From an uncultured virus (IMG/VR IMGVR_UViG_3300025098_000028) (lineage: Duplodnaviria; Heunggongvirae; Uroviricota; Caudoviricetes), in IMG/VR virus record IMGVR_UViG_3300025098_000028: a stretch of DNA of 64,000 nucleotides; one strand, given 5' to 3'. Positions 34,747-50,866 of this stretch are shown in pieces. Both the position numbers and the translations under genes were made by a program. How positions within the stretch are numbered: the stretch's first letter is position 1; each line of letters opens with the position of its first letter. Under the pieces are notes generated by a model. The model was not told the origin of the DNA. It did not search any database and saw only the letters and a list, made by a program, of their open reading frames with translations.

Positions 34747-35211
34747 CTAGTCCTCTTTGTAGGGGCGATATCTAAACATAGGCAAAACCTTCATTTGGTT
34801 ATACATATCCTCGGGCATTATATCATCTACTTGAGAATACTCTTCTATTCTTAACCCTCCTCTTTTTTCTACCATGTCAAATAGTCTTTGATTATCTGTT
34901 CCTTTTAATGGATTTAATAAAGTCACTTGTGCTTTATCCGAGCCTAGTTTGGAATCCCTATATTTGAGAACCTTACCATAAGAACCTTTGACAAATGAAA
35001 AACTGTTTCCTACAAAATAAAACTTATCGAATTCTTTGAATGAAGTATATCCTTTTAGTTTTCCAGTATCGTCATCGAAATCTGCAACAATATTAAGAGG
35101 ATGAATAATAGAAGGATATCCTTTATCTTCTGCCTTTATGAATTCATCTAGGTCTAAGAGTTTCTCTTCGGGTAGAATCTCTATCCTCTTTAATATGTTC
35201 CACCAAGACAT
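34747..35211 (-). CDS. Tagged hypothetical protein (MSWWNILK)
   Basis: Start reassigned to the Met just after the upstream stop. Confidence 0.6.
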   Translation of the reverse strand: MSWWNILKRIEILPEEKLLDLDEFIKAEDKGYPSIIHPLNIVADFDDDTGKLKGYTSFKEFDKFYFVGNSFSFVKGSYGKVLKYRDSKLGSDKAQVTLLNPLKGTDNQRLFDMVEKRGGLRIEEYSQVDDIMPEDMYNQMKVLPMFRYRPYKED

Positions 35212-35212
35212 T

Positions 35213-35581
35213 TCAACTACCTTTACGCCACTTTTTGTTTTTCTTTTCTTTGGTTTTCTTAGGACTCCATTTTTCTTTATTAGCCCAATAAGCCGCAGAC
35301 ATTTTCCCACGCTTGATATTTTCAGCATGACGAGATTTGAAGGCTTCTCTTTGCCCTTTAGTTTGATTTGTTTTGACACCTTTCTGTCCGAATTTCATGT
35401 ATTTTGCTTTCTTACTTTTGGCATCCCAAGCCATTACATGATGAGACTTGCTTTTATCATCTCTTAGTGCCTGTGCGTCATTCAATCCGGAAAGACCTTT
35501 TTTTCTTGCTCTTTCCAATGCCCGTTTTCTAGGACTTTTGGGTTTCTTTTTCTTTTTGAGAATATCCATCCAATCACTCAT
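35213..35581 (-). CDS. Tagged basic protein, DUF5754-like (MSDWMDILK)
   Basis: KFGQKG..REAFKSRH..SAAYWA motif recalled from small basic viral proteins; family name from memory. Confidence 0.55.
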   Translation of the reverse strand: MSDWMDILKKKKKPKSPRKRALERARKKGLSGLNDAQALRDDKSKSHHVMAWDAKSKKAKYMKFGQKGVKTNQTKGQREAFKSRHAENIKRGKMSAAYWANKEKWSPKKTKEKKNKKWRKGS

Positions 35582-36149
35582 ACGCATCACCTATTAGATA
35601 TCCTAATTTCTTTCCTGCTTCTATATCGCTAGGGTAGTGGCTACCCATTTGAATTCTAGATAGTGATATTCTATCAGCCATTTGTTTTAACTCTTTCTTC
35701 TTATTTGGGTATTTTTTACCTAACACTCTTTCTAAACCATGTGCGGCCATTGAGTGACCACTAGGAAAAGCAGGAGTATCGTCTGTAGTTGTTTTAGTGG
35801 ATTTAATTTTATTACTTATTTGATGGGGTCTTGGTCTTTGGTATTTCATTTTTAATGACATGGCATAATAATTAATATCTTTAATTAAATCTTCATAGTC
35901 TTCTTTATCTGCACCGACAATATCAAACATCTCTTTTTGCGGCTTAAGGTCTGCATCTTCCATTTGTTTTGGATTTAGTTTTTTCTCTTTAATTATTTTT
36001 AATATGGCGGGTATTTCTGTCTCTTCTTTTGGATAACTTAGTTTAGGAATATCTATTTTTATTTTTGGACTCCTCTCAAGCATAGCCTTTTTCTTACTAG
36101 AAAGTGTGCCTTGCCACTTTCTTTTCTTGAGAATATCCATCCAACTCAT
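35574..36149 (-). CDS. PAP2-family phosphatase, tagged (MSWMDILK)
   Basis: C1 KMKYQRPRP, C2 PAFPSGHS, C3 SRIQMGSHYPSD. Confidence 0.88.
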   Translation of the reverse strand: MSWMDILKKRKWQGTLSSKKKAMLERSPKIKIDIPKLSYPKEETEIPAILKIIKEKKLNPKQMEDADLKPQKEMFDIVGADKEDYEDLIKDINYYAMSLKMKYQRPRPHQISNKIKSTKTTTDDTPAFPSGHSMAAHGLERVLGKKYPNKKKELKQMADRISLSRIQMGSHYPSDIEAGKKLGYLIGDAYE

Positions 36150-36153
36150 GCTA

Positions 36154-36504
36154 TCACTTCGGGTTATGAGTATAAATATCTCCGTCTTTGTGCATGAATA
36201 CTTTACCGTCTTTTTCTAATTCGGCTAAGGCTCGTTTTATTTCTGCCTCTTCACCAAACTGTTTTAGATTTTTCATACCTAATGCCCCGCCTTCTTTTTT
36301 AATTTCGGCAAGTATTTTTGCTTTTATATCTTGCTTAACCATTCTTCCAACGGAAGACCTTTGCCTTGCCCCTTTACCTGTTTTTCTTCTAACTATTTTT
36401 TCGGCTTTTTCACGCATCATGTTTCTAAATCGCATTAAGTCTTGAACTTGTTTTTCTTCTTCGGGCGTTAAAGGCGGTGCCTTCAGTATATCTTTCCATG
36501 TCAT
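36154..36504 (-). CDS. Tagged protein with C-terminal wHTH-like domain (MTWKDILK)
   Basis: KILAEIKKEGGALGMKNL..IKRALAELEKDGKVF pattern. Confidence 0.55.
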   Translation of the reverse strand: MTWKDILKAPPLTPEEEKQVQDLMRFRNMMREKAEKIVRRKTGKGARQRSSVGRMVKQDIKAKILAEIKKEGGALGMKNLKQFGEEAEIKRALAELEKDGKVFMHKDGDIYTHNPK

Positions 36505-36534
36505 GCTTTCATCCTCTTTGTTTTTCTTTTTCAT

Positions 36535-37263
36535 TTAACCACCTATACCGTATTTAATTTCTAATAGCCTTAACTGCAATAACAATAAAAATAATTCTTT
36601 AGGTCGTTTCATTGATACACCAACTGCATTACCTATGAACATATCCATATCATTTTTTGATATTTGTTCGCTAGTGCTTAGATTATTAAATAACTTAGGG
36701 AAAGTATCAAGACCTTGTTCTAGTTCATCTTTAGTTATATTAAATATTTTATATCCAAACAAACTATCAATATTGGTTGCTGTTGCTACTGCTTTAGCAG
36801 ATGCAGTAGTTAAAACATCGGCAGCGATAAGATTGCTTTTGAATATAGTATAATATTTATTAAATTCATTAGTAGGCATAACTTCAAAATCAACTTTATT
36901 TTCAGACCCAGTTCCTCCAAGCATTATATGTTGCCTTCCTGTCATCATCGTAGTATCATTAAAATCATAAAATAATTCTACTTCATCTTCTGTTAATTTT
37001 GCGACATTTATTATGGGCTTACCTGTTATTCTAAAATCTCCACCTGTGCTACCGAATAAAGCATAAGGCATAGACTCATATATATTTGTAGACCAATATT
37101 CGCTTGAACCACCTTCTTGATTTCCTTGATAAATAGTTTCCACTATTTTTTCATCAAACTTTGGTAGTCCTTCTTGCCAATAACTACCAGTTTCTCTTTC
37201 ATCAAAATTAGGATTTTTTAATCTATATGGAGACTTTAGAATATTTTTCCACAAAATATTCAC
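36535..37263 (-). CDS. Tagged hypothetical protein (LWKNILKS)
   Basis: Coupled ORF with the tag near its N-terminus. Confidence 0.55.
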   Translation of the reverse strand: MNILWKNILKSPYRLKNPNFDERETGSYWQEGLPKFDEKIVETIYQGNQEGGSSEYWSTNIYESMPYALFGSTGGDFRITGKPIINVAKLTEDEVELFYDFNDTTMMTGRQHIMLGGTGSENKVDFEVMPTNEFNKYYTIFKSNLIAADVLTTASAKAVATATNIDSLFGYKIFNITKDELEQGLDTFPKLFNNLSTSEQISKNDMDMFIGNAVGVSMKRPKELFLLLLQLRLLEIKYGIGG

Positions 37264-37748
37264 CTCCCCATATCAAAGGATTCTTCTAAATCTTTGGCGT
37301 ATCTAAGCATGTTTCTGCCTTCTCTAATCCTTCTTCTATTGCCAGTAATTAACAACTCGCCAGTTAATTTCATCATCTTTATTGTTTTTTGAAACATGGC
37401 TTCTGTTCCTTCATCTAATTTATCGGAGTATTTTCTACGCTGTGTATATTTCCCCCTTTCAAAATCCTTCAAAACATTTTCAACTATTCCGTTGTTGATT
37501 CCTTGTTGTAGACTACCCTGTGATAATTCAAGCCATCTACCATCAGCATAAAATTCAGCAAGAAAACTATAATACTCTTCAAATTTTTCCTGTGGAACTT
37601 GTATTGGTACTGAAGAAAGATTCTGTGGTTTAGATGTAAAGACATTACCTATATTTTGTTTAGTTCCTTTTCTTTGTAACCAAAGATTAGCATTAGCGGC
37701 CATTCTGCCAACTATTGCTGTCTGTTTGATTACTTTGAACCAAGACAT
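37260..37748 (-). CDS. Tagged hypothetical protein (MSWFKVIK)
   Basis: Coupled ORF. Confidence 0.55.
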   Translation of the reverse strand: MSWFKVIKQTAIVGRMAANANLWLQRKGTKQNIGNVFTSKPQNLSSVPIQVPQEKFEEYYSFLAEFYADGRWLELSQGSLQQGINNGIVENVLKDFERGKYTQRRKYSDKLDEGTEAMFQKTIKMMKLTGELLITGNRRRIREGRNMLRYAKDLEESFDMGR

Positions 37749-37749
37749 A

Positions 37750-38025
37750 TCATCTACCTTCTACTCTACGATATACCTTTTTAGCAGTCTTTCCTCTAGG
37801 AACATGCTGTTTTCCCTTTTTCTTTCCTTCGCTTTTCTTGCGATTTTCATATGCCTTTTGGTTATCAGTAAGTGCATCTGCTACTGCTTTAGGGGCATAC
37901 CTATCATTTTTTCCATCACCAAGAGGTTGCCAATTTTCTTTATTCCATTCATCCATATCTTTTTGCTTATCGGTTAAACCTTTAAGAATATTCCACCAAT
38001 TACTTTTTATTGACAAAACCGCCAC
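37750..38025 (-). CDS. Tagged small basic protein (WWNILK), resembling the C-terminal part of DUF5872-associated proteins
   Basis: QKDMDEWNKENWQ..RYAPK..GKQHVP motif; exact start uncertain. Confidence 0.5.
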   Translation of the reverse strand: MAVLSIKSNWWNILKGLTDKQKDMDEWNKENWQPLGDGKNDRYAPKAVADALTDNQKAYENRKKSEGKKKGKQHVPRGKTAKKVYRRVEGR

Positions 38026-38512
38026 CTGCCTTTTGATATCTTCTATTTAGTTCTTGAGATTTACGGGCAGACCACTGACCTGCGGCAGTTCCATGAGTAT
38101 TTTGATTAAGTAAAGTTGCGTGTATTCTTTCCCTTAGTTTCGGTTGAGTATATACTCCTTTAGGCGCAGTATATCCTGATTTCTTTTTCTTTTTCTTTAG
38201 AATATCTTGCCAAGACTTACCTAATGTTTTATTAAAACTTCCATCTTGGAGTTGCCTATATCCTGCTCTAGTAGCGGCTCCTTTCATACTCATGCTAATT
38301 TTCCTAGACATTTTTTCTCCCATGTTTCTAAAATCCCTAGTAAGGGCGTTTTTGGTTCCTTGAGTTTCTAATTTTTTAAGCAAGTTTTCATAGAATTCTC
38401 TATACTCGCTATAATCTAATCTAAACTCGTCACCCAAATTCATCAAAGCAAATGCTTTATCTGCTGTTTCACTAGGTATCTTATATTTTGCTTTGTTTAA
38501 TATTTCTGTCAT
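38000..38512 (-). CDS. Protein with internal SWQDILK tag and DUF5872-like domain
   Basis: YTQPKLRERI..GQWSARKSQ..YQKAGGGF motif; family name from memory. Confidence 0.6.
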   Translation of the reverse strand: MTEILNKAKYKIPSETADKAFALMNLGDEFRLDYSEYREFYENLLKKLETQGTKNALTRDFRNMGEKMSRKISMSMKGAATRAGYRQLQDGSFNKTLGKSWQDILKKKKKKSGYTAPKGVYTQPKLRERIHATLLNQNTHGTAAGQWSARKSQELNRRYQKAGGGFVNKK

Positions 38513-38517
38513 AATTA

Positions 38518-41046
38518 TCACCTAAATTCTGCCTTAATAAGATATACTTGGTCTGCACTTATTCCATATTCTTTTGCTATATTGTTGTGAGAATCGTCAC
38601 CCGTAACTATCTTTTCTACTTCATAAACGCTCAAATCAATCTGTTGCTCTACTTGCATTTTATTAATTACTTTATTTATTCCGTGAGTATTGAGTATTCT
38701 TCGGCCATGAACAACCTCTTTTCCTAATTGCTTTCTAATAATATCGTGAGCCTTCAGCATCTTATGCAATAGAACTGGCAAGTCTATTTGGACATTTTCA
38801 AATAAATCTTTGAGTCTATTGTATTGTTTTCTTTTGGTAGAATCCTGCGTTAATGCTCCTTGATTTCGGTCTAACCATGTAGGCAAGGCAAATATTGGGA
38901 ATCCTTGTTTTTTATTGTGCTGTTCATAAAACGCATCATACCTTTCTTTGATTGTCTTTCGTGCAAACTTTCTTTTTCCGAACTTTTCTAGTTTTTCTTC
39001 ATCAAATGCATCTTTAGCAAAATGGTAAATTATAGCGGCACAATAATTATCATTTTCTTCTTCCTTTCCGAATATTCTAGTTAATCCATCAGCCGCTTCC
39101 ACGCCTTCATCTATCAAATCTGCCCCAATTGTAACTCCCGAATCAAACATATTTTCTAAAAAGTCGGCTATGCTTCGTAAATCATCGTTGCTAGCCTCAT
39201 TTAAACTTCCCTCAAATGCCATTTCTATGGAACTAGATAAGACAGTCTCCACTCCTAAATCTACACTGAGTAATTGGAAAACTTGTGTACCTAAACTTCT
39301 TCCAAAGGTAGGAACGGAAATCGGTAAATAACCTGCATAAATAGGATTGAAGAAATATTCTACTGCTGATTTCATCATCTTTTTTAGCGCATCGGAAACT
39401 TCTTCCATTACCTCTCTAAGTTCTCCACCTCTTTGTAGAGGAACAGGGAATTCTGTTTTAGGTGCGACTCCTAATCTTTTTTTATCTCTACTATCCATCA
39501 TTGAACCCCTCAATCCTGTAGAACTTCTAATTTGGACTTCTGCTCTAAATTGGTCTGCTGTCAATAGCCTATACAAATCTTCAAAGAAATCTTTAATCAT
39601 ATCTAAATTATCTAAACTTATTTTTTCACCATTAAGTGCTTCAAAACTCTCACCTTTAGGATAAGATTCAGCAAAGTTCGAATTAGTCATTACTGATATA
39701 GGTAGGGCAAATTTAGCCTTGTAGTCCTCATCTAAAACAGTAGTATCTTCCATCTCATCAGCCCATCTTTGTAAATCATATTGAGTGTTTAAAGAAATTA
39801 TTTCTTGGCCTTCTAGACCTTCTCTATTAGAGAGGCTTTCTTGTATATCCTGTAAAGCATCTAATAATTCTAATTCAGCCTCTTCTGTAATTGATACTAA
39901 TTTATTATTAGTATTATCTTCATAAATTAACAGTGGGTCTGCTACTGCTCTTAACTTTGAAACATCACCACTAAATTCGGTAGTGTTTTCATCAGTATAT
40001 TGCCCTAGACTTTCTCCGGATAGTGTCTGCCCTCCTCCCGCATCTTGGCTAAGACTAGACATTAAATCTGCTGTTAATTCAGAATTTATATCTGCAAAAC
40101 TAACAGGGTCATCTTCATATCTTTCTTCTAATGATTCTTTATCAAACAAATCTTCTGCTATCATTATGTTAAAGATAATGTTCCAAAACTTTTGTCTTCT
40201 ATTTGTGAAGTCTCTATCTACAGATGGGAAATAAGCAACATATTGTAACTTGTTTAAGTCTATTTTTTGTAAATCTTCTAAAGCGTCTTGAGCCTCATCA
40301 GCCTCTTCGGGAAATTGTAATTTTTCTAATTTCTCAAATAATTTTTCAGTATCTTCTTTGAACTGCTCGAACTTTTTAGTGGTACTATTCCAAAAATCAT
40401 AAATTTCTATTCTAGTAGATTTTTTAGATGCATCTGCTACTCCCAAATACCTCTTGACAGGAAACTTTCTTTCAACTATTGATATTTCTGCTTCTTTTTC
40501 TTCCATATCCTCCGATAATTTTTCTATAATAAAATCATAGTTATCGGCTAATATTTTCAAGTCATCGTTCTGTGAAGCCCCCGCTACTGCGGCCTGTAGA
40601 CTTTCATTTTCTAGTAAAGAAATGTCTTTATTTCGTATTTCTATATTTCTCCTATCCCTTAGTTTAATTTTAACCAAGTCATTATAGTCTACTAAAACAC
40701 CATCTACGACTATATTCATATCAAGTAGTGGCTGTATTACTGACCTAATTTGTTTGACTCCTCCTTCCAAAACCGCCCTAGTTCCTGTTCCGGACAAATT
40801 TCTTATTTGTTTGTTAAGGTCTTTTTTGAGTTCATCAGTTTCCTCTTTTATGTATTTTTTTCTAGCCTCTAAGTTTTGTGTAGTTTGTTCAGCCTCTTGG
40901 TTTGGTTTATCGGGAAATTTCTCGTTGGCTTCCTGTTCTATTTGTTCTATATATGGTGCAAGCATTCTTCCACGAATAGCCTTTCTTTGGACTTTATTTG
41001 CTTCACTTAGAAATTTAAGTTGTTCTTTATCAAATTCGACTTTCAT
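38518..41046 (-). CDS. Large acidic helical protein, candidate internal virion protein
   Basis: 842-aa ORF; short HTH-like C-terminal domain after an MLKA motif. Confidence 0.55.
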   Translation of the reverse strand: MKVEFDKEQLKFLSEANKVQRKAIRGRMLAPYIEQIEQEANEKFPDKPNQEAEQTTQNLEARKKYIKEETDELKKDLNKQIRNLSGTGTRAVLEGGVKQIRSVIQPLLDMNIVVDGVLVDYNDLVKIKLRDRRNIEIRNKDISLLENESLQAAVAGASQNDDLKILADNYDFIIEKLSEDMEEKEAEISIVERKFPVKRYLGVADASKKSTRIEIYDFWNSTTKKFEQFKEDTEKLFEKLEKLQFPEEADEAQDALEDLQKIDLNKLQYVAYFPSVDRDFTNRRQKFWNIIFNIMIAEDLFDKESLEERYEDDPVSFADINSELTADLMSSLSQDAGGGQTLSGESLGQYTDENTTEFSGDVSKLRAVADPLLIYEDNTNNKLVSITEEAELELLDALQDIQESLSNREGLEGQEIISLNTQYDLQRWADEMEDTTVLDEDYKAKFALPISVMTNSNFAESYPKGESFEALNGEKISLDNLDMIKDFFEDLYRLLTADQFRAEVQIRSSTGLRGSMMDSRDKKRLGVAPKTEFPVPLQRGGELREVMEEVSDALKKMMKSAVEYFFNPIYAGYLPISVPTFGRSLGTQVFQLLSVDLGVETVLSSSIEMAFEGSLNEASNDDLRSIADFLENMFDSGVTIGADLIDEGVEAADGLTRIFGKEEENDNYCAAIIYHFAKDAFDEEKLEKFGKRKFARKTIKERYDAFYEQHNKKQGFPIFALPTWLDRNQGALTQDSTKRKQYNRLKDLFENVQIDLPVLLHKMLKAHDIIRKQLGKEVVHGRRILNTHGINKVINKMQVEQQIDLSVYEVEKIVTGDDSHNNIAKEYGISADQVYLIKAEFR

Positions 41047-43409
41047 GTTGTTACTCTCCTTATTATTGGTGGACTCGCTGATGATAGTTTATCTAATACT
41101 TCCTTTACCATAGTATCTTTAAATTGTTCGGGATTTTCTATTAACTTTTGGACGGTTTGTTTGAAGCCTTCGACGATATCATCTCTTGCTCTATTTAGAA
41201 TTGAAGCCATATTGTCATTTAACTTTTCTGCTTCTTTCATGGCTTTATCGGGATTTTCCTGTATATTTGAGTCTATTATTTTGTAAGATTTTTTGACTTC
41301 ATCCCCTCTTATAGAGGCTATAACTCCTAAAAAGATTAAACTCCTTTCAGCACTAATGACATCCAAAGCACCCTTATCTCGATTGTAAGTTTTTACATGG
41401 TCAATTAGATTGTTTTCTTTAGCAAAATCTATTAAAAAAGCAGGGAAATTACCCTTTGAGTTTATTTGATTTCTAAGTTTTTGTGTAGATTCTTTTATAT
41501 CTCCACTAAGACCTTCCTTTAATTTTGCTTCTAACTCTTCTATTTTTTGTTTGAGTTTTTTCTCGGATTGAATTACCTTAGCCCTTCCTCCTTCTTTGGG
41601 TTTGGCTGTGCTTAATTTTCTTTCTTTTGGTTTCCCTTCTACTTGGGATAGTAGTTTTTTAGCCCTTTCTAATTCATCCTTTATTCTTTCTTCTATCATT
41701 TCAGTAGTGCCTGTTTCTACCTGTATTCCTTCATTTTCTTTGGCATCTTTAAAAGTAAATGGCATAAAATCATTCACTTCATTCCCTTCGTCGTCTTCTT
41801 CTTCAAAAGTAAATATTTTAGCACTATCGGCTCTATCTTTACCATCATACTCTTTTATTTTTGGAGAACCGTCAGGATTCCTAACAATATTCCCATCATT
41901 ATCTCTTTCTTCTGCTTCATATTTGGCAGGACTACTTCGGAAAAAATAATCTACTCTAACTTCATCTTCTTCATATCCTTGTTCTAATAAATATTTTTTA
42001 ATTGCTTCTGCTTCTTTAACAGTATAACTATTTTTTAGAAACTGATATGTTTCGTTTCTTACTATTTCCACTTTATCAGTTACTATTGCATCTGCCCTTT
42101 CACTATCGGTCAAAACTTTGTAGACTTTTCTTCTTAATTTATCAAATGGTAAATTTATATTCTCTATTGAACTTCTAAATATTCTAAGAGGAACATTATA
42201 GTCTTCGCTTTCTCGTTTTCCAGTATCGGGTAAAGTCCTAGTAATGTCTTCTACGATAAGCGTTTTTGCCTGTTTTTCGGACAGGCTTCCTTGTGTTCGT
42301 ATTTGGTCAAAAAATACATCAGCCCAATTTTGTTTTTGAAATACATTTTTCATAATTATTTCTGCATAGGGATTAAAATTAAAACTTTTTTTACTGCCTT
42401 TTTCTAAAAACAATAACTTAGGTAGTTTTACTATGCGGGATTTATCTTCTAATATTTCTTTAAATCTTACTGGTTTAAAACTAGTAACTACTCCTGCAAC
42501 TCTATCTATGATTCGCATATAATTTATGATTGAACTTGCTCCGAAGGGTTCTACTAATTCATATTTGACATTTTTAGCGGATAAAGTTACTGCTTCTATT
42601 ACTTTAGGGTCAATTTCCACAACTTTAGAGTCAATATTTAACATTAAACCATTTTTATCCTTAAATTTGTTATATAATTGTAGAGCAACTGCTTTTTCTT
42701 TTACCGCATCGTCATTATCTAAAATTTCAACTTTATTTTCCTTGTCTCGCTTGGTTTTAGGTTGCACAAGGAGCCTAAAATCAGTTAGAGTTTTGATATT
42801 TAGAAGAATTACATCTCCATCCACTCTAGCCGCATTAGTATTCGACTTTCCTCCTAGATTTTCTGCTAATTTTTTCATTTCTGCGTTGCTAGGTGGTGTT
42901 TGAGTAAAATAAATGTAAGATTTTTGAGTATCAAGGCGCAAATATTTCAATTTGGCGGCTATTTTTTTGTTTTTCTTTAGTGTGCTTACTCCCAAAGACC
43001 CAAATCTGTCAATTTTTTCTAAAATTTTAACAACTTCATCGTGTTTTCCTTCATTTTTTAGTTGAACTGCTTGGTCAAGCAACTTTTCTATCTCTACTTT
43101 TGGCAAAAAAGTTAAACTTTCCATTAATTCTGTTAAGTTTCTTTGTATTTCATCCATTGATAAGTCCATGTGGCCGGTATTCTTCCAAGTTTCTACAAAT
43201 TTTTCTAAAGGAAGTTGGCCAGTTCCAACCTGTCTAAGAGTATTCTTTATTGTTTCAAGCCCGCCTTCGGTGTCTGCGTCTCCGCTAGCCACGGCATCTT
43301 TTACTTGCTGTAAATATTTTTGAAATTGCGCCCTATTTACTAAATTATAGGCTATCATAGTTTTATTAGATTGCACTTTAGGCATCTTTAGAACTGCTTG
43401 CCACGACAA
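41043..43409 (-). CDS. Large tagged protein (MSWQAVLK)
   Basis: 788 aa; TTG start with GGTGA SD. Confidence 0.6.
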   Translation of the reverse strand: MSWQAVLKMPKVQSNKTMIAYNLVNRAQFQKYLQQVKDAVASGDADTEGGLETIKNTLRQVGTGQLPLEKFVETWKNTGHMDLSMDEIQRNLTELMESLTFLPKVEIEKLLDQAVQLKNEGKHDEVVKILEKIDRFGSLGVSTLKKNKKIAAKLKYLRLDTQKSYIYFTQTPPSNAEMKKLAENLGGKSNTNAARVDGDVILLNIKTLTDFRLLVQPKTKRDKENKVEILDNDDAVKEKAVALQLYNKFKDKNGLMLNIDSKVVEIDPKVIEAVTLSAKNVKYELVEPFGASSIINYMRIIDRVAGVVTSFKPVRFKEILEDKSRIVKLPKLLFLEKGSKKSFNFNPYAEIIMKNVFQKQNWADVFFDQIRTQGSLSEKQAKTLIVEDITRTLPDTGKRESEDYNVPLRIFRSSIENINLPFDKLRRKVYKVLTDSERADAIVTDKVEIVRNETYQFLKNSYTVKEAEAIKKYLLEQGYEEDEVRVDYFFRSSPAKYEAEERDNDGNIVRNPDGSPKIKEYDGKDRADSAKIFTFEEEDDEGNEVNDFMPFTFKDAKENEGIQVETGTTEMIEERIKDELERAKKLLSQVEGKPKERKLSTAKPKEGGRAKVIQSEKKLKQKIEELEAKLKEGLSGDIKESTQKLRNQINSKGNFPAFLIDFAKENNLIDHVKTYNRDKGALDVISAERSLIFLGVIASIRGDEVKKSYKIIDSNIQENPDKAMKEAEKLNDNMASILNRARDDIVEGFKQTVQKLIENPEQFKDTMVKEVLDKLSSASPPIIRRVTT

Positions 43410-43415
43410 TATAAA

Positions 43416-43655
43416 TCACCTGTATAAAATATATCCTGCGGCTCTCGCTAACAGCCTTAAAGTGTCATATTCATCACCATCGGGAAAATCTAATTCTTCC
43501 CATTGGTTAAATGTAAATCGAATTGCATCATAATATTTATTTTGTTTATTATTTTCTAGCCATTCACGAATCGTATTAGCATGTTCTTGTTTAACACTAA
43601 TATAATTACCCTCTTTATCTTTAGGGCGGTGTTTAATTATATTTAGCCAACTCAT
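43416..43655 (-). CDS. Tagged small protein (MSWLNIIK)
   Basis: ATGA overlap with the upstream stop. Confidence 0.6.
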   Translation of the reverse strand: MSWLNIIKHRPKDKEGNYISVKQEHANTIREWLENNKQNKYYDAIRFTFNQWEELDFPDGDEYDTLRLLARAAGYILYR

Positions 43656-44317
43656 TGTAACTTCTCCTGCATTCTTTGTTTGATGTCTAACCAAATCTCC
43701 GGATTATTCTGTGCTAATACTTCTTGAACTATTTGCATTTGGGCAACAATAATGGTATCTTGTCTCTTGTGAACCAATTTACCCTTAAACTCCATAAGAT
43801 ATTTTAGCGACTCTCTAATTTCTCTAGCAAGTTTTGTTAAAGCATCAATCATCTTTGGGTCTAAATCATTTCCTAAGTCGTTGAACACTTGCTCCAACCT
43901 AACATCTAATTTAGAAACATTGTTAGAAAGTAATTCAACTTCATTAACTTCTTTTCTTGCTATCATCATAGCGGCACTTTCTTGAACAATAGGCATTAAA
44001 TGGTGTTTCATGTGCCTTTGGATTTGTTGTTTAGTAGTATCTAATGCTTCTGCAACAGACTCACTTTCAATACTACCTTCACTAATTGCCTGTTCATAGT
44101 GTTTTCTCATTGGGTCTACGCACAATTTGCATTTTGGATTCGAACTCATTTTATATTCGCCCATGTGGTTTCTTTGGTGTTGTGCCGCAGTTCCACTTCT
44201 CCAACCATACTTCTCATCTAATTCATCACAAGTTATTTCTCCGGAGTCGAGCATTCGCTCTAATTCTGCCCTGTCTTCATGTTGGCACATGCCGCACCTT
44301 TTTCGGCTAATGGCCAA
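43652..44317 (-). CDS. Candidate terminase small subunit (two Zn/HTH repeats plus coiled oligomerisation region)
   Basis: CGMCQH..HQRNH and CKLC..RHMKHH repeats followed by amphipathic helices; untagged gene inside the tagged block. Confidence 0.5.
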   Translation of the reverse strand: MAISRKRCGMCQHEDRAELERMLDSGEITCDELDEKYGWRSGTAAQHQRNHMGEYKMSSNPKCKLCVDPMRKHYEQAISEGSIESESVAEALDTTKQQIQRHMKHHLMPIVQESAAMMIARKEVNEVELLSNNVSKLDVRLEQVFNDLGNDLDPKMIDALTKLAREIRESLKYLMEFKGKLVHKRQDTIIVAQMQIVQEVLAQNNPEIWLDIKQRMQEKLQ

Positions 44318-44318
44318 T

Positions 44319-45620
44319 TTATCTCCTCCAAAGATTCTGTTGCCAAAATTTAGAAATTACTTTAGTATCAGGCTTATACTTTGAATTTTTATCATCTACA
44401 CTATCGCCAAACTTTTCTCTTGCAGTTTTTCTATAATCAAAACCGCCCCTTCTAGTATTTTGCCACGCTCTAAAACCATTTGGTGCTTTCTTTTCTTTAC
44501 TCCCAAATTTTCTTTGAAGGGCTAAATCTACTAGACCTATAACCGGAGTAGCAGTAGAAGTTAATCTCATTCTGTTAAAATAAACTAGTATTCCGTCTTC
44601 TCCCGATTCTATTCCCGCTAAGCCCCTAACTAAGTTTTGGTCACGGTTTCCTAATGTTAAATCAGTAGCATTGAGGCCGCTTCTAACTTTATTTGTTAAT
44701 AGTCTACCACCTGCATTCCAAAGAGACTCATTGGTTACAACCTTGTCAAAATATTCTCTTACGGATTCTATTTTGTTCAATTCCGAAGCAGGAGTTCTAG
44801 GAGGAATATTATCTAACTTAATACCCACAGGGCCATCTCTTTCTAATTCTTCTTCTGCTTCTCTCATAATTTCTATGAGTCCTTTTGGCTTGGAAAATTT
44901 AGTATCTGTTTTAGAAAATAATGCCAAGTGTGGAGGATTTTCCCCCGCTAGCCAAGAAGGGTCTACTCCATTACCTTCACCTGCATAATTGTCAGTCTTA
45001 TAATGCCCTTGAACTTCTTTTTCTTCTATTACTTCACCTGTGTCGGGGTCTTTTATTTTATCAGTAAATAATATGAAAGCAGGGTCAAATGCTTCAGTAC
45101 CTCCTCCTGCATCCTTTCCTGTGTCTTTATATTTTTCTAATTCATTTGCGAATTCGGTAATTAGTTTTGCTTCTGCCTTGGTCAAGAATCTGTTTTCTTC
45201 CATTATCTCGTCAATCTTATCCAAAAATTCAATCGCACCTTGACCCGACCTTCCTTTGTTTCTACTACCGTCACGAATAATATCTTCTGTCTTTAGGTGC
45301 ATTTTAAGAAACTTATACAAATTACCTACATTTTTAGTTTCCAAATCCCCATCAGTAATGTTGGTGCAATTTGTTTTCCATTGTTGGTATTTACTAGGGA
45401 AAGAATAGTTTGGGGCATCTACAGGATTACCATTGATGTCTATTTCATCTTTCTTCTTTTCGTCTTTGTTGCCCTTCTTCTTTTCATTTTTTAGAAGGTC
45501 GTCTTTTTTCTTCTTTTTCTTTTTAGAATATGATGTATTAAACATAGCGGGAGAAGATGTAGTGGTAACAGCACCTGCCATTTTTTCTTCTTCATCTTTT
45601 AGAATATTTCTCCATGACAT
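44319..45620 (-). CDS. Tagged protein (MSWRNILK) with poly-Lys tract
   Basis: GGTGA SD; SKKKKKKKDD. Confidence 0.6.
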   Translation of the reverse strand: MSWRNILKDEEEKMAGAVTTTSSPAMFNTSYSKKKKKKKDDLLKNEKKKGNKDEKKKDEIDINGNPVDAPNYSFPSKYQQWKTNCTNITDGDLETKNVGNLYKFLKMHLKTEDIIRDGSRNKGRSGQGAIEFLDKIDEIMEENRFLTKAEAKLITEFANELEKYKDTGKDAGGGTEAFDPAFILFTDKIKDPDTGEVIEEKEVQGHYKTDNYAGEGNGVDPSWLAGENPPHLALFSKTDTKFSKPKGLIEIMREAEEELERDGPVGIKLDNIPPRTPASELNKIESVREYFDKVVTNESLWNAGGRLLTNKVRSGLNATDLTLGNRDQNLVRGLAGIESGEDGILVYFNRMRLTSTATPVIGLVDLALQRKFGSKEKKAPNGFRAWQNTRRGGFDYRKTAREKFGDSVDDKNSKYKPDTKVISKFWQQNLWRR

Positions 45621-45630
45621 TCTAATCACC

Positions 45631-45993
45631 TTAAATTCCTTCTCTACCGAAATAATATACTGTTTCTTCTAAAGCATCTTTCATGCTAGCGATTGGGTCT
45701 TTTCTAAATTCTTCAAAGGATTGCTCTTGTATTTGTCCTCGTAAGTTGTTAGTATATCCTAGAATATCCTTATCGTATTTACTAGAGGGTCGAATATTAT
45801 CTATGGCCTGATTAAAGGCTTCTTCATAGCCCATGTCTCGTTTCAACCGAATTACATCTTCAACAAAATTAAAAATTATATCTTCGTTCTCTATGAGAAA
45901 TTCTGTTCTCTCTACTTCTTCTCCGAACTCAAGATTATATCTCTTGATGGCATCTACATCATATCCTTTTCTCAACTGTTCCTTCCACGACAT
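45631..45993 (-). CDS. Tagged protein (MSWKEQLRK)
   Basis: GAGGTGA SD. Confidence 0.6.
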   Translation of the reverse strand: MSWKEQLRKGYDVDAIKRYNLEFGEEVERTEFLIENEDIIFNFVEDVIRLKRDMGYEEAFNQAIDNIRPSSKYDKDILGYTNNLRGQIQEQSFEEFRKDPIASMKDALEETVYYFGREGI

Positions 45994-45998
45994 TTTAA

Positions 45999-46196
45999 TC
46001 ACCTCTTAGTAAAAACACTTCTAGCAACGCTTCTACCCTTTTTCTTTGCCTGTAAAACCTTGAAGTCTTTTTCATCTATTTTGTTTTTTGGGGGGGCTTG
46101 TTCGGCTATTTTCTTTTGATTACCAAAAAGTTTCTTTTCGAATTCTTCTCTCTCCACATCGGTTTTTTCGGTTTTGAGAACTTTTTTCCATGACAT
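45999..46196 (-). CDS. Tagged small basic protein (MSWKKVLK)
   Basis: GGGGTGA SD; NQKKI..KIDEKDF motif. Confidence 0.6.
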   Translation of the reverse strand: MSWKKVLKTEKTDVEREEFEKKLFGNQKKIAEQAPPKNKIDEKDFKVLQAKKKGRSVARSVFTKR

Positions 46197-46241
46197 AGTT
46201 TTCACCCCTTATCTATCCGTTAATGCCCATATGTTATAGTT

Positions 46242-46490
46242 TTAACTGCCTTCTACTTTCTCCATTATAGTTACCAAAACAGTTCTTATTGCATCTGCCA
46301 ACATATAATGCTTTTTAGCAAGGTCTTCTAACCTTTCCATATCTAAATCTTTTTCACTAAAAAATTCTGCAATAGTTCTCTCTATATTTTTCAATGTTAT
46401 AATCTGTTGTCCTATAACATCTATGGCCATTTCATAATCTTTGAATTGTGTTCCAATTCTTTCATCTTTTAATATTGTTTTCCATGTCAT
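46242..46490 (-). CDS. Tagged small helical protein (MTWKTILK)
   Basis: Coupled ORF. Confidence 0.6.
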   Translation of the reverse strand: MTWKTILKDERIGTQFKDYEMAIDVIGQQIITLKNIERTIAEFFSEKDLDMERLEDLAKKHYMLADAIRTVLVTIMEKVEGS

Positions 46491-46499
46491 AGTATCATC

Positions 46500-47627
46500 T
46501 CATAGTGTTTCTAATAAATGCAAAAAATATCTAGAATAGGCTCTTGCATTTTCGGGAGTAGTTGTAAAATATTCTTCCTTAGCGTGAGTGGTTCCTTCCA
46601 AAGAAGACATTTTTCTATCTGCTTCTTGTCTCTTTTTTAAATACATATCAATGGCTTTTTTGATAGTCTCATCTTTCATTACCTCTATCATTCTGCCATA
46701 TTTTTTTACTTCGGAAGTATCTAATGTGTTTATTATTTCTCTAGCGAGGGCAACTGGCATACCTAAATCAACTACCTTTCTGCTTAGAATTCTTTTCTCA
46801 ACAGGTCGCCTTTTAAGAACAGTCTGCCAATCATTATTGGGTGAATCTCCCTTTTTTACATTTTTTGAGTTATAGAGACTTAATTCTAATTTTATACCTC
46901 TTCTAGCCTCTCTTGTTGAAAGGAAAGGAACAATTGACTCTAACTGTTTTATTATCGTATTTTTCATGTTCATTAACTCCGATTTAATTTTTGCATTTTG
47001 CTCGCTTGATAATTTTACTCTACTAACTAGAGGCTTTAGTATCTCATATTCTTCTTGACTCATACGCATTGGTTTATTATCATAATAAGAATTAAACTCG
47101 TTATATATCGTTGTTTTTAATTTTTTAATGTGAGACTCATCTGTTAAGTTTCCGCCTTTTAGCCCGATGTTATCTCTAAAGTCTCTTGACAACTTTAGAT
47201 ATTTTTCTACAAGAGGTGAAAGTGTTTCTTCAAATTTTTCTCTTGCTTCCTCTAAATCATCTAGATATTGTTCATGGTTTGTTTCTTTTAAGGTTTCTAT
47301 TCTTTCCCTTCTATTTTTTTCGTCATCCCGTGGGTAATGTAAATCTGCTATCCTGTTCTCTTCTCTATTGAATTTGCTATATTCATTCCATATTTCTCTA
47401 TCTATATCGTCCATCCCACCGGAAGGTGCGATAATTACTCTTTCCATTACTCTTTTATATGTATCAGTCATAGAGGCTTGAAGCCTTAACTGGTTTTGTT
47501 CTCTTTTGATTTCGCTATTATCTCTTATAGCAGGGGTAGACATCATAAATCTACTAGGGTCTACTCCGCCCTTTTTTCTTTTAGGGATTTTAATTTTCCT
47601 GTTTTTTATGATGTCTTCCCAACTCAT
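46500..47627 (-). CDS. Tagged helical protein (MSWEDIIK; internal DWQTVLK)
   Basis: 375-aa ORF. Confidence 0.6.
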   Translation of the reverse strand: MSWEDIIKNRKIKIPKRKKGGVDPSRFMMSTPAIRDNSEIKREQNQLRLQASMTDTYKRVMERVIIAPSGGMDDIDREIWNEYSKFNREENRIADLHYPRDDEKNRRERIETLKETNHEQYLDDLEEAREKFEETLSPLVEKYLKLSRDFRDNIGLKGGNLTDESHIKKLKTTIYNEFNSYYDNKPMRMSQEEYEILKPLVSRVKLSSEQNAKIKSELMNMKNTIIKQLESIVPFLSTREARRGIKLELSLYNSKNVKKGDSPNNDWQTVLKRRPVEKRILSRKVVDLGMPVALAREIINTLDTSEVKKYGRMIEVMKDETIKKAIDMYLKKRQEADRKMSSLEGTTHAKEEYFTTTPENARAYSRYFLHLLETL

Positions 47628-47731
47628 TTCTTACCACCTGTAACAAAACACTTCTTTGACTTTGACTCTTTCTTATCTACTTCCTTTGATTTTGCATCAA
47701 ACCACTTATCGAGATAATTGCACCTTGTCAT
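47624..47731 (-). CDS. 35-aa peptide MTRCNYLDKWFDAKSKEVDKKESKSKKCFVTGGKK
   Basis: Not in ORF track; fills the gap, has an AGGCGA SD and an ATGA overlap with the next gene. Confidence 0.55.
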   Translation of the reverse strand: MTRCNYLDKWFDAKSKEVDKKESKSKKCFVTGGKK

Positions 47732-47740
47732 ATTATTCGC

Positions 47741-48052
47741 CTACAAATTTTTTAGTTTATCGTATAGTTCGCCTATTAATTCATACGCTTCATCTAGCAA
47801 AGTTTCATTATCTAAACGGTCAATTAGTGGCATGCAATCTCCTAAAGCATCCTTTGCATTATTCTGCAAAAAAGTAATAGTCGGGTTTCTTACCCTACCT
47901 ACTTCCCGTTTCTTATTTACCTTATCTTCGAATTGAGGAATAAGAGGATATTCTTTTGACGGCAATCCTTGTTTGATTCTCTCCCTTGCTCTCTTTACAT
48001 CTGCCGGTAAATCTTCTTCTTCTTCTTCTTTAATTATTTTTTTCCAACTCAT
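47741..48052 (-). CDS. Tagged protein (MSWKKIIK)
   Basis: GGAGG SD. Confidence 0.6.
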   Translation of the reverse strand: MSWKKIIKEEEEEDLPADVKRARERIKQGLPSKEYPLIPQFEDKVNKKREVGRVRNPTITFLQNNAKDALGDCMPLIDRLDNETLLDEAYELIGELYDKLKNL

Positions 48053-48055
48053 AAT

Positions 48056-48502
48056 TTAATCCTCCTTTTCGGAATTTCTATCTAAAAAGGTAGAATAATC
48101 CATAACTACCTTTTTGAAGCCATTGGCATGAACTAGCCAATGTTGATTATTGTCTTTGTCAAAAAATATATCTAAAACCGATGAAGAACGAAGTGGTTTA
48201 GAAACTTCTAGTTTCATGTTCCAACCATCATTTTCTCCCGCAAATTCTTTAGCCCATTCTTCATCCACATTATTGGTTAATCTAAATAATGATTCGGGGC
48301 CAACTTCCTTTCCATCAAATTGAACGCTAGCAACATGCTCGTAATATTTATCAAATAATTCAGGAGTTATATCTAGAGGGGTTTGACCATACCCATTAAC
48401 CATCAAAAGTTCCTTCCGTATGTTTTCGGGAACATCGTCTCTAAAGAAATAAACTTCCCAATCTTTACCATTAGATAATTTTAAAATATCTTTCCATGTC
48501 AT
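48056..48502 (-). CDS. Tagged protein (MTWKDILK)
   Basis: Start inside a conserved junction repeat; LRSSSVLDI resembles YodL-like RS.S.GD. Confidence 0.6.
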   Translation of the reverse strand: MTWKDILKLSNGKDWEVYFFRDDVPENIRKELLMVNGYGQTPLDITPELFDKYYEHVASVQFDGKEVGPESLFRLTNNVDEEWAKEFAGENDGWNMKLEVSKPLRSSSVLDIFFDKDNNQHWLVHANGFKKVVMDYSTFLDRNSEKED

Positions 48503-48511
48503 ATTACTCAC

Positions 48512-48835
48512 CTAATACCCATACCTAAATGTATTTTCGGGAAACATCTCACTACTCGTAGGTTCTGTCGGAGTTTTGCTAAAATCAATATCATAAAGTT
48601 CTCCATAGAAATAATCCCAAACATTATCATAATCCGATTTTTCCTTTAGGAACTTATTTAATTTATCTCTAGGTAATTGACTCACGGTATAATCAGGGTT
48701 TTCAATAATGTTATTCATTACATCTACATCGTCTTGACTAAACATATAATCATCGTCGGGGTAATCAAACTTTGAAAAATATTCAATAAGACCTTCTCTA
48801 GTTAATTCTGCTTTTAGCACATCTTTCCATGTCAT
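48512..48835 (-). CDS. Tagged acidic protein (MTWKDVLK)
   Basis: Start inside a junction repeat. Confidence 0.6.
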   Translation of the reverse strand: MTWKDVLKAELTREGLIEYFSKFDYPDDDYMFSQDDVDVMNNIIENPDYTVSQLPRDKLNKFLKEKSDYDNVWDYFYGELYDIDFSKTPTEPTSSEMFPENTFRYGY

Positions 48836-48844
48836 ATTATTCAC

Positions 48845-49234
48845 CTAATCATCTCTTGAAGCAAAATCAGCCGACCTTTCTCTTCTTTCGGCTATTCTCC
48901 TTTCTGCTTCTGCTTCTTCTCTAGCCTCTCCCTCTACATCGGAAGAATACAATTCAAATTCTTCTTTTAAAATTTCATTAATATCCTTATCAAAATCGTC
49001 TATCATTTTTTGAACGGAATCTCTTATTTCATCATGTAATTCTACTGCCAAAAGAGTCGCCTTTTGTCTACCGTCAAATTCTTTAAGTCCTAGTTGAAAA
49101 TATTTAACTACTTCTGTCATGTTTTTATTTACACTTTCGAAAATCTCATCCCTAAGTTTTAACAAATCATCACTATGATTAGACCCCATCATATCGAGTC
49201 TTTTCTTTTCTTTTAATATGTCGTGCCATGTCAT
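48845..49234 (-). CDS. Tagged acidic protein (MTWHDILK)
   Basis: Start inside a junction repeat. Confidence 0.6.
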   Translation of the reverse strand: MTWHDILKEKKRLDMMGSNHSDDLLKLRDEIFESVNKNMTEVVKYFQLGLKEFDGRQKATLLAVELHDEIRDSVQKMIDDFDKDINEILKEEFELYSSDVEGEAREEAEAERRIAERRERSADFASRDD

Positions 49235-49243
49235 ATTATCCAC

Positions 49244-49513
49244 CTAATAATCACCCTCAAATTCAGCCCTACTTTGAGCGTCATCATCTATTCTCATTTG
49301 TTGCATTTTGCGTATTTCATCAGCAAGAACTTCCATAGCCATATATTCGGGGTCAATATAGGATTTTAGTCTCTCACTCTCAGATTTAGCGTTTTTAATA
49401 CATTCAGGTCTTTTAGCCAAGTCTAATATTGCATCCTCTATTACATCTAAAGATTCATTCCTAAGTGAACGGTTAATATTTAGTGCTTTCTTTATCTCTT
49501 CTTTCCATGTCAT
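49244..49513 (-). CDS. Tagged acidic protein (MTWKEEIKK)
   Basis: Start inside a junction repeat. Confidence 0.6.
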   Translation of the reverse strand: MTWKEEIKKALNINRSLRNESLDVIEDAILDLAKRPECIKNAKSESERLKSYIDPEYMAMEVLADEIRKMQQMRIDDDAQSRAEFEGDY

Positions 49514-49523
49514 ATTATTCACC

Positions 49524-49922
49524 TTAAACATCATACATTCCTTGAATGGCCGCTTTCAATTCTTCAACTGTTAAATTATCAATGTTTGATTCTATTATTC
49601 CACTATATCCATCATTAGCGGTAAAATCTGCAAGTGCTATATCTTTCCCACTTGGGGTAGAAAACTCTATTCTGTAATGTGCTAAATCAGCATCAAACAA
49701 ATCCCCTTGTTCTAAATCATCGGATTCTCCTTCATCATCTGCTAGGCTTCTATCAAATGTAATGTCTAAGTTTAAACCATCTGCTGAATTGAAACCGCCT
49801 GTTTCCATTTGTTCAAAATCATATTGCATTTTGCCTCTTCCCCAATCTTCTATTAGTTCATCTAATTTAATCTGCAACTCTTCTTTTTCATCATCTTTTT
49901 TTAGTATATTTTTCCATGTCAT
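49524..49922 (-). CDS. Tagged very acidic protein (MTWKNILK)
   Basis: Start inside a junction repeat. Confidence 0.6.
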   Translation of the reverse strand: MTWKNILKKDDEKEELQIKLDELIEDWGRGKMQYDFEQMETGGFNSADGLNLDITFDRSLADDEGESDDLEQGDLFDADLAHYRIEFSTPSGKDIALADFTANDGYSGIIESNIDNLTVEELKAAIQGMYDV

Positions 49923-49926
49923 ATTA

Positions 49927-50136
49927 TCACCTAAACCGATTAACTAACTCTTGAACTTCTTTGAGTAATACAGGTTTTAACTTTTTATCTACTAAGGTAT
50001 CAAGAAAATCCATATCTCTATTTTCTGTCATAGTATCATCATCAAATAATTTAGAATACATTGTGTCTATCATAGCAGATACAGTTTCCTGTAATCCTGC
50101 TTCTGTTCTAATTTTCAATATATTCTCCCATGTCAT
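49927..50136 (-). CDS. Tagged small protein (MTWENILK); first gene of the late block
   Basis: Start inside a junction repeat. Confidence 0.6.
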   Translation of the reverse strand: MTWENILKIRTEAGLQETVSAMIDTMYSKLFDDDTMTENRDMDFLDTLVDKKLKPVLLKEVQELVNRFR

Positions 50137-50866
50137 ATTATCACCTAAAATTTCTCAAAAAATGTGGCGGAATTTTTTTGGCACTTGCGCGCTCATTTTT
50201 TTCTATAGATTTATATTCCCACAATAAAATCATAAGAAATAAACCGTGAGGTTTTATTTTATTAGATTTAAATAAACTGGTTTGTTTATTATAATTGCGC
50301 CCATTTAAATTGTTTAATTTAGTATTATTACTTCGCAGTATATTGTTTATTACTAAAAAGGGCAATTTAATGTGATTAAGAATGGTGCGATAAACTAGTT
50401 GCGGGAGGTTTAGAAACATAGTTTATCAGTAGTGGGGAAATCGCCTTAGATTATAATATATTCGGTTCTAAAATGGTTGAATTAATCGTTTAATATTCAA
50501 AATAGAGCATTAAATCGTTGTGTTTTAAATCTAATGAAATAAAAATTTTGGAAAACAAAGCATATGGTTGTAGATTAGAATATGCAAAATGCATAAAGGG
50601 CATTTATTCTCAAGGTTAGTCAATGATTGTTTATAGCGGCTAACAAACGAATAAAAAACGCATTACGCAACTACTCAATGTTTAATTCCGAAGCCTACAT
50701 CCTTCCTAAACAATGCCCTTGTTCAACATTCTCTAATTATGCACAATGAATTGCCATCGCATGTTGCCAATTGCTACTACAACCATATGGTTGGAGACTT
50801 TGGCGATATAACCCTACCTATAATCGCCATTACAGCGATATAGGGATTACGGGGGAGTATTATTAC

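Follow-up and report, generated by a model that had tools for sequence, protein, structure and literature searches.

A short Trp-x-x-Ile-Leu-Lys tag on otherwise unrelated late proteins of magroviruses: a candidate capsid-address label resembling the C-terminal motif of the scaffold

The 64,000-nucleotide stretch of DNA analyzed here (IMG/VR record IMGVR_UViG_3300025098_000028, hereafter the window) covers the late half of the genome of an archaeal tailed virus, in which the tail, head, and packaging genes are all encoded on the minus strand. Within a minus-strand block at 34747-50136, upstream of the large terminase gene (terL), 22 of 24 open reading frames (ORFs) bear an eight-residue tag of the form M-[ST]-W-x-x-[IV]-[IL]-K. 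This tag is real, highly non-random, and conserved; it is under selection at the peptide level, is limited to the head-adjacent late zone of the genome, and is apparently undescribed. The explanation that we favor, with a probability of about 0.55, is that the tag serves as a capsid-address label, loading cargo into the virus head in a manner resembling the capsid targeting sequence (CTS) of phage T4, and that it was derived from a docking motif of the viral scaffold.

An initial annotation of this sequence had listed 21 ORFs with an N-terminal tag and internal copies in two ORFs, and a six-frame scan of the window bore out both counts. The pattern W..[IV][IL]K gave 22 matches, 21 of them on the minus strand between 35188 and 50130, while the single plus-strand match, at 33351, is a chance occurrence. 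Nineteen of the 21 lie no more than eight residues from an ORF start, and the remaining two are internal, at 38195-38212 (ORF 38000-38521) and 46812-46829 (ORF 46500-47627). With the degenerate N-terminal copies of ORFs 45631-45993 (MSWKEQLRK) and 49244-49513 (MTWKEEIKK), this amounts to 21 N-terminally tagged ORFs, 19 strict and two degenerate, plus the two internal copies. The tagged proteins include, as had been claimed, a PAP2 phosphatase (PF01569, E 1.4e-12) and a 788-residue protein (41043-43409), and the only ORFs of the block without a tag encode an 842-residue acidic protein and a 221-residue, Cys-bearing protein resembling DNA-binding proteins. At the nucleotide level, the pattern ATGWSNTGGNNNNNNRTNHTNAAR was matched 15 times, always on the minus strand and within 35188-50136, against a mean of 0.00 expected from 100 dinucleotide-preserving shuffles.

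Among cultured phages no close relative was found, and annotation via homology to them was ruled out, as the closest TerL, in Bacteroides phages, is only 26.5% identical. IMG/VR, on the other hand, holds many relatives of 90-97 kb whose TerL proteins are 81-99% identical. One of them (G002) encodes a split family-B DNA polymerase, an RFC-like ATPase, ERCC4, an ATP-dependent ligase, a thermosome-type chaperonin, and a TFIIB-like protein, a gene set that agrees with the magrovirus description by Philosof et al. (PMC5434244). Magroviruses are characterized in another study as ubiquitous viruses of abundant ocean archaea (PMC10160649).

In a sample of 80 TerL loci from such relatives (1.41 Mb), the tag motif had 651 gene-strand matches and 27 on the opposite strand. 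The gene-strand matches comprise 387 upstream of terL and 264 downstream, the latter mostly 1.5-4.5 kb beyond the end of terL, between the next gene and the portal gene; tagged genes lie upstream of terL in the window and on both sides of it in the relatives. Gene location was checked in the window, six complete relatives (G002, G003, G006, and G008-G010), and one partial relative (G011). In all of them, N-terminally tagged ORFs were present only around terL and the portal gene, between the portal and protease genes, or just past the major capsid protein (MCP) gene, in line with the late-only enrichment that had been anticipated. Matches in the replication half were no more than scattered and were never N-terminal (GRWDRVLK in G002 and G003, for example). 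Each complete genome has 12-25 ORFs with a relaxed tag near the start, of 111-122 called ORFs.

Specificity controls run on the 80 relatives and the window gave 655 matches for the forward motif and 3 for the reversed one. Replacement of the Trp by a Met-preceded Phe or Tyr was seen in one case each, spacings shorter or longer by one residue gave 36 and 13 matches, respectively, and exchange of the Lys for Arg or Glu gave 22 and 2. No residue is conserved past the Lys, although charged residues make up 40% and 56% at the first two post-tag positions and 32-56% over the first 14. The tag does not have the form of a Sec- or Tat-type signal peptide, which has a hydrophobic core of some 10-20 residues behind a charged N-region; it consists of eight residues with three hydrophobic positions followed by often charged sequence. 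Its codons vary from copy to copy in the window, and about 500 non-redundant tags use all three Ile, six Leu, and two Lys codons, with Lys codons at background frequencies (p 0.95). Since synonymous codons vary freely, selection acts on the peptide, and the earlier proposal of a peptide signal rather than a DNA-level repeat is upheld.

The initial annotation was mistaken in treating the tag as strictly N-terminal. Among 797 copies of the relaxed pattern, 643 are N-terminal and 25 ambiguous, whereas 96 are internal, at domain junctions, and 33 lie at the extreme C-terminus, no more than 12 residues from the stop codon. The internal copies are usually preceded by [VGF]-K-K-[SG] and sit at junctions of domains that form separate tagged genes elsewhere. 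In ORF 38000-38521, for example, the tag joins a 103-residue N-terminal part to a basic 64-residue domain (phrog_17747), which in relatives is a separate N-tagged gene. In a 175-residue family adjoining terL, the motif lies at the very C-terminal end (...KSWHLILKRY), and other members are fused to further domains. The family of the 433-residue window protein (ORF 44319-45620) shows the N-terminal tag in 0 of 15 relatives but ends in a motif of the type K-x-W-x-x-[ILY]-[LM], which in 6 of the 15 fits the relaxed tag. The retention of the tag at internal and C-terminal sites fits a docking motif but not a strict N-terminal leader.

A similar motif closes two proteins of the head module. The prohead serine protease encoded at 23203-24453 (minus strand) consists of an HK97-type Peptidase_S78 domain (residues 22-174, E 7.7e-10) joined to a long C-terminal half that is acidic, helical, and scaffold-like. 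It ends ...EELAEMDWSDIHKMAGGLI, with the motif-bearing tail ...EMDWSDIHKMAGGLI, and contains MDWSDIHK; the terminal MDWSDIHKM reported earlier is indeed present. The second protein, of 82 residues (27725-27973, minus strand), is encoded between the portal and a ligase-domain gene and comprises a conserved N-terminal helix, a variable linker, and the scaffold-type C-terminus ...NMDWSDIHKMVEKAGGQ. When a profile built from 501 non-redundant tags of the relatives was used to score 14,601 eight-residue sites in 50 untagged window proteins, the MDWSDIHK sites of the 82-residue protein and the protease-scaffold took ranks 1 and 2, with 7.3 bits each versus 4.7 for the next site. The consensus M-[DS]-W-x-D-[IVL]-[HN]-x-[MLIV] is found at the C-terminus of all 80 protease-scaffold homologs examined, whose viruses have MCP identities of 57-100%, and in homologs of the 82-residue protein from 38 loci, the remaining loci being mostly too short upstream. 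The suggested likeness between tag and scaffold end therefore stands as regards these ranks; the identity of the two motifs does not, given His in place of Leu or Ile and the loss of Lys in some lineages. Judged by sequence, the scaffold motif and the tags are two related motif classes rather than one.

The scaffold motif extends beyond the tagged viruses. In two far more distant viruses (GC content 45-47%), with an MCP of the P0005 type (a library protein 45% identical to the window MCP), an S78-scaffold fusion again precedes the MCP gene. These fusions end ...LPWTKVHDM... or ...TPFGQVHNL..., that is, [WF]-x-x-V-H-x-[ML], whereas N-terminal tags were absent from their 84-kb contigs (68-78% complete). 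The scaffold motif is therefore older and more widespread, and the tags that resemble it arose later, within the magrovirus lineage.

The tagged proteins themselves change rapidly. After removal of the tag, 22 tagged and 28 untagged late proteins of the window were compared with the six complete relatives: tagged proteins had homologs in a mean of 0.86 of the six and untagged late proteins in 5.3, and 12 of the 22 tagged proteins had a homolog in none. Tagged genes thus turn over fast, which is accessory behavior. The 660 N-tagged proteins of the 80 relatives and the window form 193 single-linkage clusters, the largest of which has 117 lysine-rich members and may be chained, and only one of 147 cluster representatives, a PAP2 phosphatase, reached the Pfam cut-off. 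Very basic proteins (pI ~10) occur alongside acidic ones (pI 4-5). Cys residues are scarce in the tagged proteins of the window (3 of 3968 residues, against 63 of 12031 in untagged late proteins; Fisher p 2e-5), and the plus-strand genes contain 36 in 1994 residues. Pooled over the six relatives, the depletion is milder (5.7 versus 9.7 per 1000; p 7e-9). Despite this overall scarcity, Cys is enriched 3-9 fold at post-tag positions +3, +4, +6, +8, and +10, and some families have a C-G-C-G or C-x-x-C cluster directly past the tag (in relatives, e.g., L013:7243-7377, L020:513-647, and L025:19318-19452). In the relative G003, about eight paralogous tagged genes, each encoding 190-250 residues, are arrayed in tandem at ~57.5-61.6 kb of the contig (L098-L099), with gene starts that include MKWKDILKNVIT, MDWKDILKNAIT, and MRWQDILKETVT; this array is an expanded family of predicted cargo in a single relative.

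The capsid-address explanation can be set out as follows. The sequence M-[STN]-W-x-[DNE]-[IV]-[LI]-K would be a short, portable docking motif, with Trp, Ile, and Leu at positions i, i+3, and i+4 forming one face of a helix. Its origin would lie in M-[DS]-W-x-D-[IV]-H-x-[ML], the ancient capsid-docking motif at the C-terminus of the magroviruses' own head-assembly proteins. Placed at the N-terminus (the usual case), at a domain junction, or at the C-terminus, it would bring a protein, along with the scaffold and protease, into the procapsid during assembly. The scaffold would then be degraded and lost, whereas the cargo would remain in the head and enter the host with the DNA; the S78 protease would remove the tag after its Lys. 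Candidate receptors are the N-terminal arm of the MCP, the portal protein, and the scaffold core. The cargo, a fast-changing accessory set, would probably consist of host-takeover or counter-defense factors. Capsid-interior binding, removal of the tag after Lys, packaging, and ejection are the steps that we infer. Put in its full form, the proposal would be that magroviruses turned the coat-binding hook of the scaffold into a position-independent eight-residue label, through which 12-25 proteins per genome, falling into some 190 or more clusters with nearly all members lacking a known family, are loaded into the head for co-injection; this version is advanced tentatively, at slightly less than even odds.

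Several observations weigh against this explanation. The residue that is Leu or Ile in the tags is consistently His in the scaffold version, and divergent lineages change the scaffold Lys to Thr, Ser, Asn, or Asp while their tags keep W-x-[DN]-I-L-K. No co-variation of the two motifs was found at the His/Leu and Lys positions, and together with the His versus Leu/Ile difference this leaves a shared receptor short of established. A set of 22 cargo species, including proteins of 788, 433, and 375 residues, would be an unusually large load. The Cys depletion is uneven, the trend being reversed in G010 (12.7 per 1000 in tagged versus 10.1 in untagged proteins). The tagged block also forms the opening part of a long minus-strand gene run, which bears on the timing of its expression; of the 24 marine sequencing runs listed as containing this DNA, none is recorded as RNA. 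Finally, AlphaFold2 modeled the protease-scaffold poorly (mean pLDDT 49, with C-terminal helices at ~57-84), making structural statements about the motif weak. A complex prediction for the MCP (89 rows) with the 69-residue tagged protein 49927-50136 (75 rows) gave a score of 0.00 and a mark of 0.32 and, run without controls, speaks neither for nor against binding.

Other explanations of the tag must be considered in the light of the same evidence. It might dock on a shared partner outside the capsid, such as the virus-encoded chaperonin of the thermosome type, a hub protein of the host, or a compartment for replication or assembly, and so gather accessory proteins without packaging them. The motif is short and position-independent, like the linear motifs that bind hub proteins, the relatives encode a Cpn60_TCP1 chaperonin, and scaffold motif and tags do not co-vary. 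We nevertheless regard this account as unlikely, while granting it some weight, because, among untagged proteins, the tag profile is matched best by the C-termini of the protease-scaffold and the small head-module protein, both of kinds that act inside the procapsid, and because tagged genes lie among the head genes in the relatives, with none in the replication half. A nucleic-acid signal, whether a translation-start cassette, a promoter, or a recombination site for cassette shuffling, with the peptide as its by-product, appears very improbable. Five genes at 48.5-50.1 kb do share a wider DNA cassette, TAGGTGAnAATATGACATGG, comprising a stop codon, a Shine-Dalgarno-like GGTGA, and a start codon, and tags at fusion junctions could mark points of recombination. 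Against this stand the free use of Ile, Leu, and Lys codons described above, the internal and C-terminal copies, which need no start signal, and a bacterial promoter scan of 34-53 kb that remained at chance level (70 found versus 70.3 expected).

The tag could also be mainly a recognition and cleavage site of the S78 prohead protease, cut after I-L-K in propeptides and polyprotein-like fusions, with no targeting involved. The CTS peptides of T4 end in the cleavage motif of its own protease, and HK97 is cut after Lys. In the untagged window proteins, ILK tripeptides occur five times in 12,957 residues, and three of the five lie in the protease-scaffold (residues 18-20, 170-172, and 383-385), where they are conserved in homologs. 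Their contexts are D-F-x-I-L-K-S near the N-terminus, PEA[KR]FDILK at the end of the protease domain, and E-T-I-[LI]-K-A, 18 residues ahead of the MDW motif, and across 36 aligned homologs I15-L16-K17 and I167-L168-K169 are invariant. These may be sites of self-cleavage or self-targeting, although the FDILK site falls inside the Pfam S78 match and may be structural. Internal tags, too, are located at domain junctions, often following K-K-S. As a complete explanation, however, cleavage seems doubtful and the less persuasive for several features of the motif: trimming eight N-terminal or two to five C-terminal residues would have no evident purpose in the absence of targeting, the Trp is invariant yet five residues from the supposed cut, nothing is conserved past the Lys, and the scaffold motif loses its Lys in divergent lineages. 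Within the capsid-address explanation, clipping of the tag after Lys by the S78 protease is possible, the placement of the ILK sites providing one weak hint of it.

Comparison with known systems places the tag between two of them. The internal proteins of T-even phages are diverse, counter host defenses, and have only the CTS in common, which places them in the scaffolding core, and the T4 CTS can package foreign proteins (PMC3012670). As with the CTS of the T4 proteins IPI-III and Alt, a short N-terminal peptide is all that diverse, fast-changing proteins share here, being borne by 21 otherwise unrelated window ORFs, a prohead protease is present, and between related viruses the tag is kept whereas the proteins bearing it differ. 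There are also differences. The virus infects archaea; its protease is of the HK97-type Peptidase_S78 family, fused to the scaffold, and, as judged from this protease, relatedness to the T4 system was not found. Furthermore, the tag mirrors the C-terminal motif of the scaffold, occurs also internally and C-terminally, and marks 12-25 genes per genome as opposed to a handful in T4. For the magrovirus tag, packaging and cleavage are putative.

The second system is that of phage 80alpha, in which the C-terminal 'helix-and-hook' of the scaffold binds the N-arm of the capsid protein, and the unrelated SaPI1 protein CpmB carries the same C-terminal RIIK motif and competes for the N-arm site of the 80alpha scaffold (PMC5644958). 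As in the 80alpha scaffold and CpmB, the motif here is hydrophobic and ends in Lys (D-I-L-K and D-I-H-K). It is short, conserved, and situated within about 20 residues of the scaffold C-terminus in 80 of 80 homologs, and it recurs on a second, unrelated protein, that of ORF 27725-27973 and its homologs, with the N-terminal tags as the nearest motif class. In the 80alpha system, a single pirate protein copies the motif to alter capsid size, whereas here a virus equips some 20 accessory proteins of its own with a variant, in most cases N-terminally. A variant of the scaffold hook on a large, fast-changing gene set beside the head genes combines the anatomies of 80alpha and T4, and it is this combination that suggests a capsid address.

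Encapsulins likewise have an HK97-fold shell and use short terminal peptides to address varied cargo inward. They have no portal, terminase, tail, or DNA, however, and their loading peptides are mostly C-terminal and of another sequence type; the virus analyzed here possesses a portal, TerL, a tail tube, and a prohead protease and is a complete tailed virus. Reports on the giant phages SPN3US and phiKZ describe many different head-internal proteins that are cut by the prohead protease and ejected (PMC7411985, PMC10052503). The genomes of these phages are ~240 kb in size, versus ~95 kb here. Their ejection proteins carry a cleavage consensus in longer propeptides and are not known to share a short leader. 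In the passages searched of the magrovirus, capsid-targeting, and archaeal-virus literature, no description of the tag was found, and the papers retrieved on capsid targeting with a prohead protease all concerned T4, SPN3US, or P1.

There is no cultured magrovirus host, and almost nothing is therefore known of how these viruses take over cells. Should the tag prove to be a packaging label, a regular expression would suffice to read the proteins that are injected from any magrovirus contig, yielding hundreds of candidate host-takeover or counter-defense proteins directed at marine group II archaea and, more generally, a sequence rule by which the proteins that uncultured viruses inject could be listed straight from metagenomes. 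It would be the first virion cargo-loading system of an archaeal virus and the largest cargo repertoire of a tailed virus known to us. Such a label would also imply that tailed viruses can evolve general cargo loading by copying a scaffold docking peptide, uniting the internal proteins of T4, the piracy of capsids by SaPIs, and the loading of encapsulin cargo as instances of one principle, and an eight-residue tag with a small HK97 shell would constitute a simple protein-packaging system.

The genes of the tagged block, all on the minus strand, are described here in coordinate order. Adjoining terL is a 154-residue protein starting MSWWNILK (34747-35211), followed by a very basic protein of 122 residues (35213-35581; pI 10.7; MSDWMDILK) that matches phrog_7595 only past the tag. 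The PAP2 phosphatase (35574-36149; 191 residues; MSWMDILK) has its domain at residues 98-187, in which the RP, PSGH, and SRxxxxxHxxxD elements are visible; its residues 1-97 read as largely polar or charged, in contrast to the usual membrane-embedded PAP2 enzymes. Next are proteins of 116 residues (36154-36504; MTWKDILK), 240 residues (36535-37257; LWKNILK after a TTG start), 162 residues (37260-37748; MSWFKVIK), and 91 residues (37750-38025; GTG start), the last with SNWWNILK at residues 8-15 and a match to phrog_14910 past the tag. The internal tag of ORF 38000-38521, a protein of 173 residues, reads KSWQDILK. PHROGs families for tagged proteins were limited to three, none with an assigned function, and every match lay past the tag.

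The untagged 842-residue acidic protein (38518-41046) belongs to the core, with a homolog in 6 of 6 complete relatives, and an Atlas look-up for it gave no usable match. It is followed by the 788-residue tagged protein (TTG start; SWQAVLK) and one of 79 residues (43416-43655; MSWLNIIK). The second untagged core protein, of 221 residues (43652-44317), has five Cys residues and weak matches to zinc-ribbon and helix-turn-helix DNA-binding domains. Near its C-terminus EIWLDIK[QK] is conserved, the relatives ending ...NNPEIWLDIKK[RK]MQEKLQ, which is a third W-x-D-I-type motif near a C-terminus. The 433-residue protein (44319-45620) begins MSWRNILK and ends ...SKFWQQNLWRR, and the 120-residue protein with the degenerate tag MSWKEQLRK (45631-45993) comes after it. 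The following tagged proteins have 65 residues (45999-46196; basic; MSWKKVLK), 82 residues (46242-46490; acidic; MTWKTILK), and 375 residues (46500-47627; MSWEDIIK, with the internal copy DWQTVLK).

The remaining genes of the block encode proteins of 103 residues (47741-48052; MSWKKIIK), 148 residues (48056-48502; acidic; MTWKDILK), 107 residues (48512-48835; acidic; MTWKDVLK), and 129 residues (48845-49234; acidic; MTWHDILK), the 89-residue protein with the degenerate tag MTWKEEIKK (49244-49513), a protein of 132 residues (49524-49922; acidic; MTWKNILK), and, as the product of the first gene of the block, the 69-residue protein starting MTWENILK (49927-50136). Before this first gene lie 0.7 kb without a convincing gene (50137-50866), in which ORF 50141-50419 is of low complexity; the promoter of the tagged block is probably located in this region.

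Further along the minus strand, a tail tube gene lies at 11665-13836. The MCP is encoded at 21854-23191 and is a presumed receptor of the motif. Its AlphaFold2 model (mean pLDDT 79) and Foldseek matches to the Mic1, SU10, T5, and HK97 capsids (E 2e-13 to 1e-8) confirm the HK97 fold; in the N-terminal region of the model, residues 25-38 and 40-53 fall below a pLDDT of 50, and one short helix is present at residues 8-16. Between the portal and prohead protease genes is encoded a 980-residue core protein (24497-27439; 6 of 6 relatives) with an ATP-dependent DNA ligase/nucleotidyltransferase domain (PF01068, E 2.9e-30, residues 248-435). G002 has an additional, canonical ligase of 509 residues in its replication module (L090:1953-3482), and the question is raised whether the ligase-like enzyme of the head region may be a head component. 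The portal gene, whose product is the alternative candidate receptor, is at 30115-31749, and terL is at 33306-34736.

No conserved small terminase gene was found adjoining terL. The tagged gene directly upstream of terL was rejected for this role, because unrelated genes occupy the position across the 72 loci examined. A 454-residue protein encoded between terL and the portal gene (31932-33296, minus strand) is kept in 6 of 6 relatives and has an acidic N-terminal half and a weak match to HNH/LAGLIDADG-like endonucleases (residues 289-416; phrog_5046, E 5e-5); either it or the 221-residue protein 43652-44317 may act as the small terminase.

Upstream of the tagged block, a Kyanoviridae Gp96-like protein is encoded at 51343-51651 on the minus strand (PF23790, E 2.7e-19), and a strong terminator-like hairpin of nine pairs with a T run follows this ORF at 51305-51326 on the same strand. 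On the plus strand, 59666-60301 encodes a pyrimidine-dimer DNA glycosylase (PF03013, E 3e-8). These two genes are shared with marine cyanophages and UV repair.

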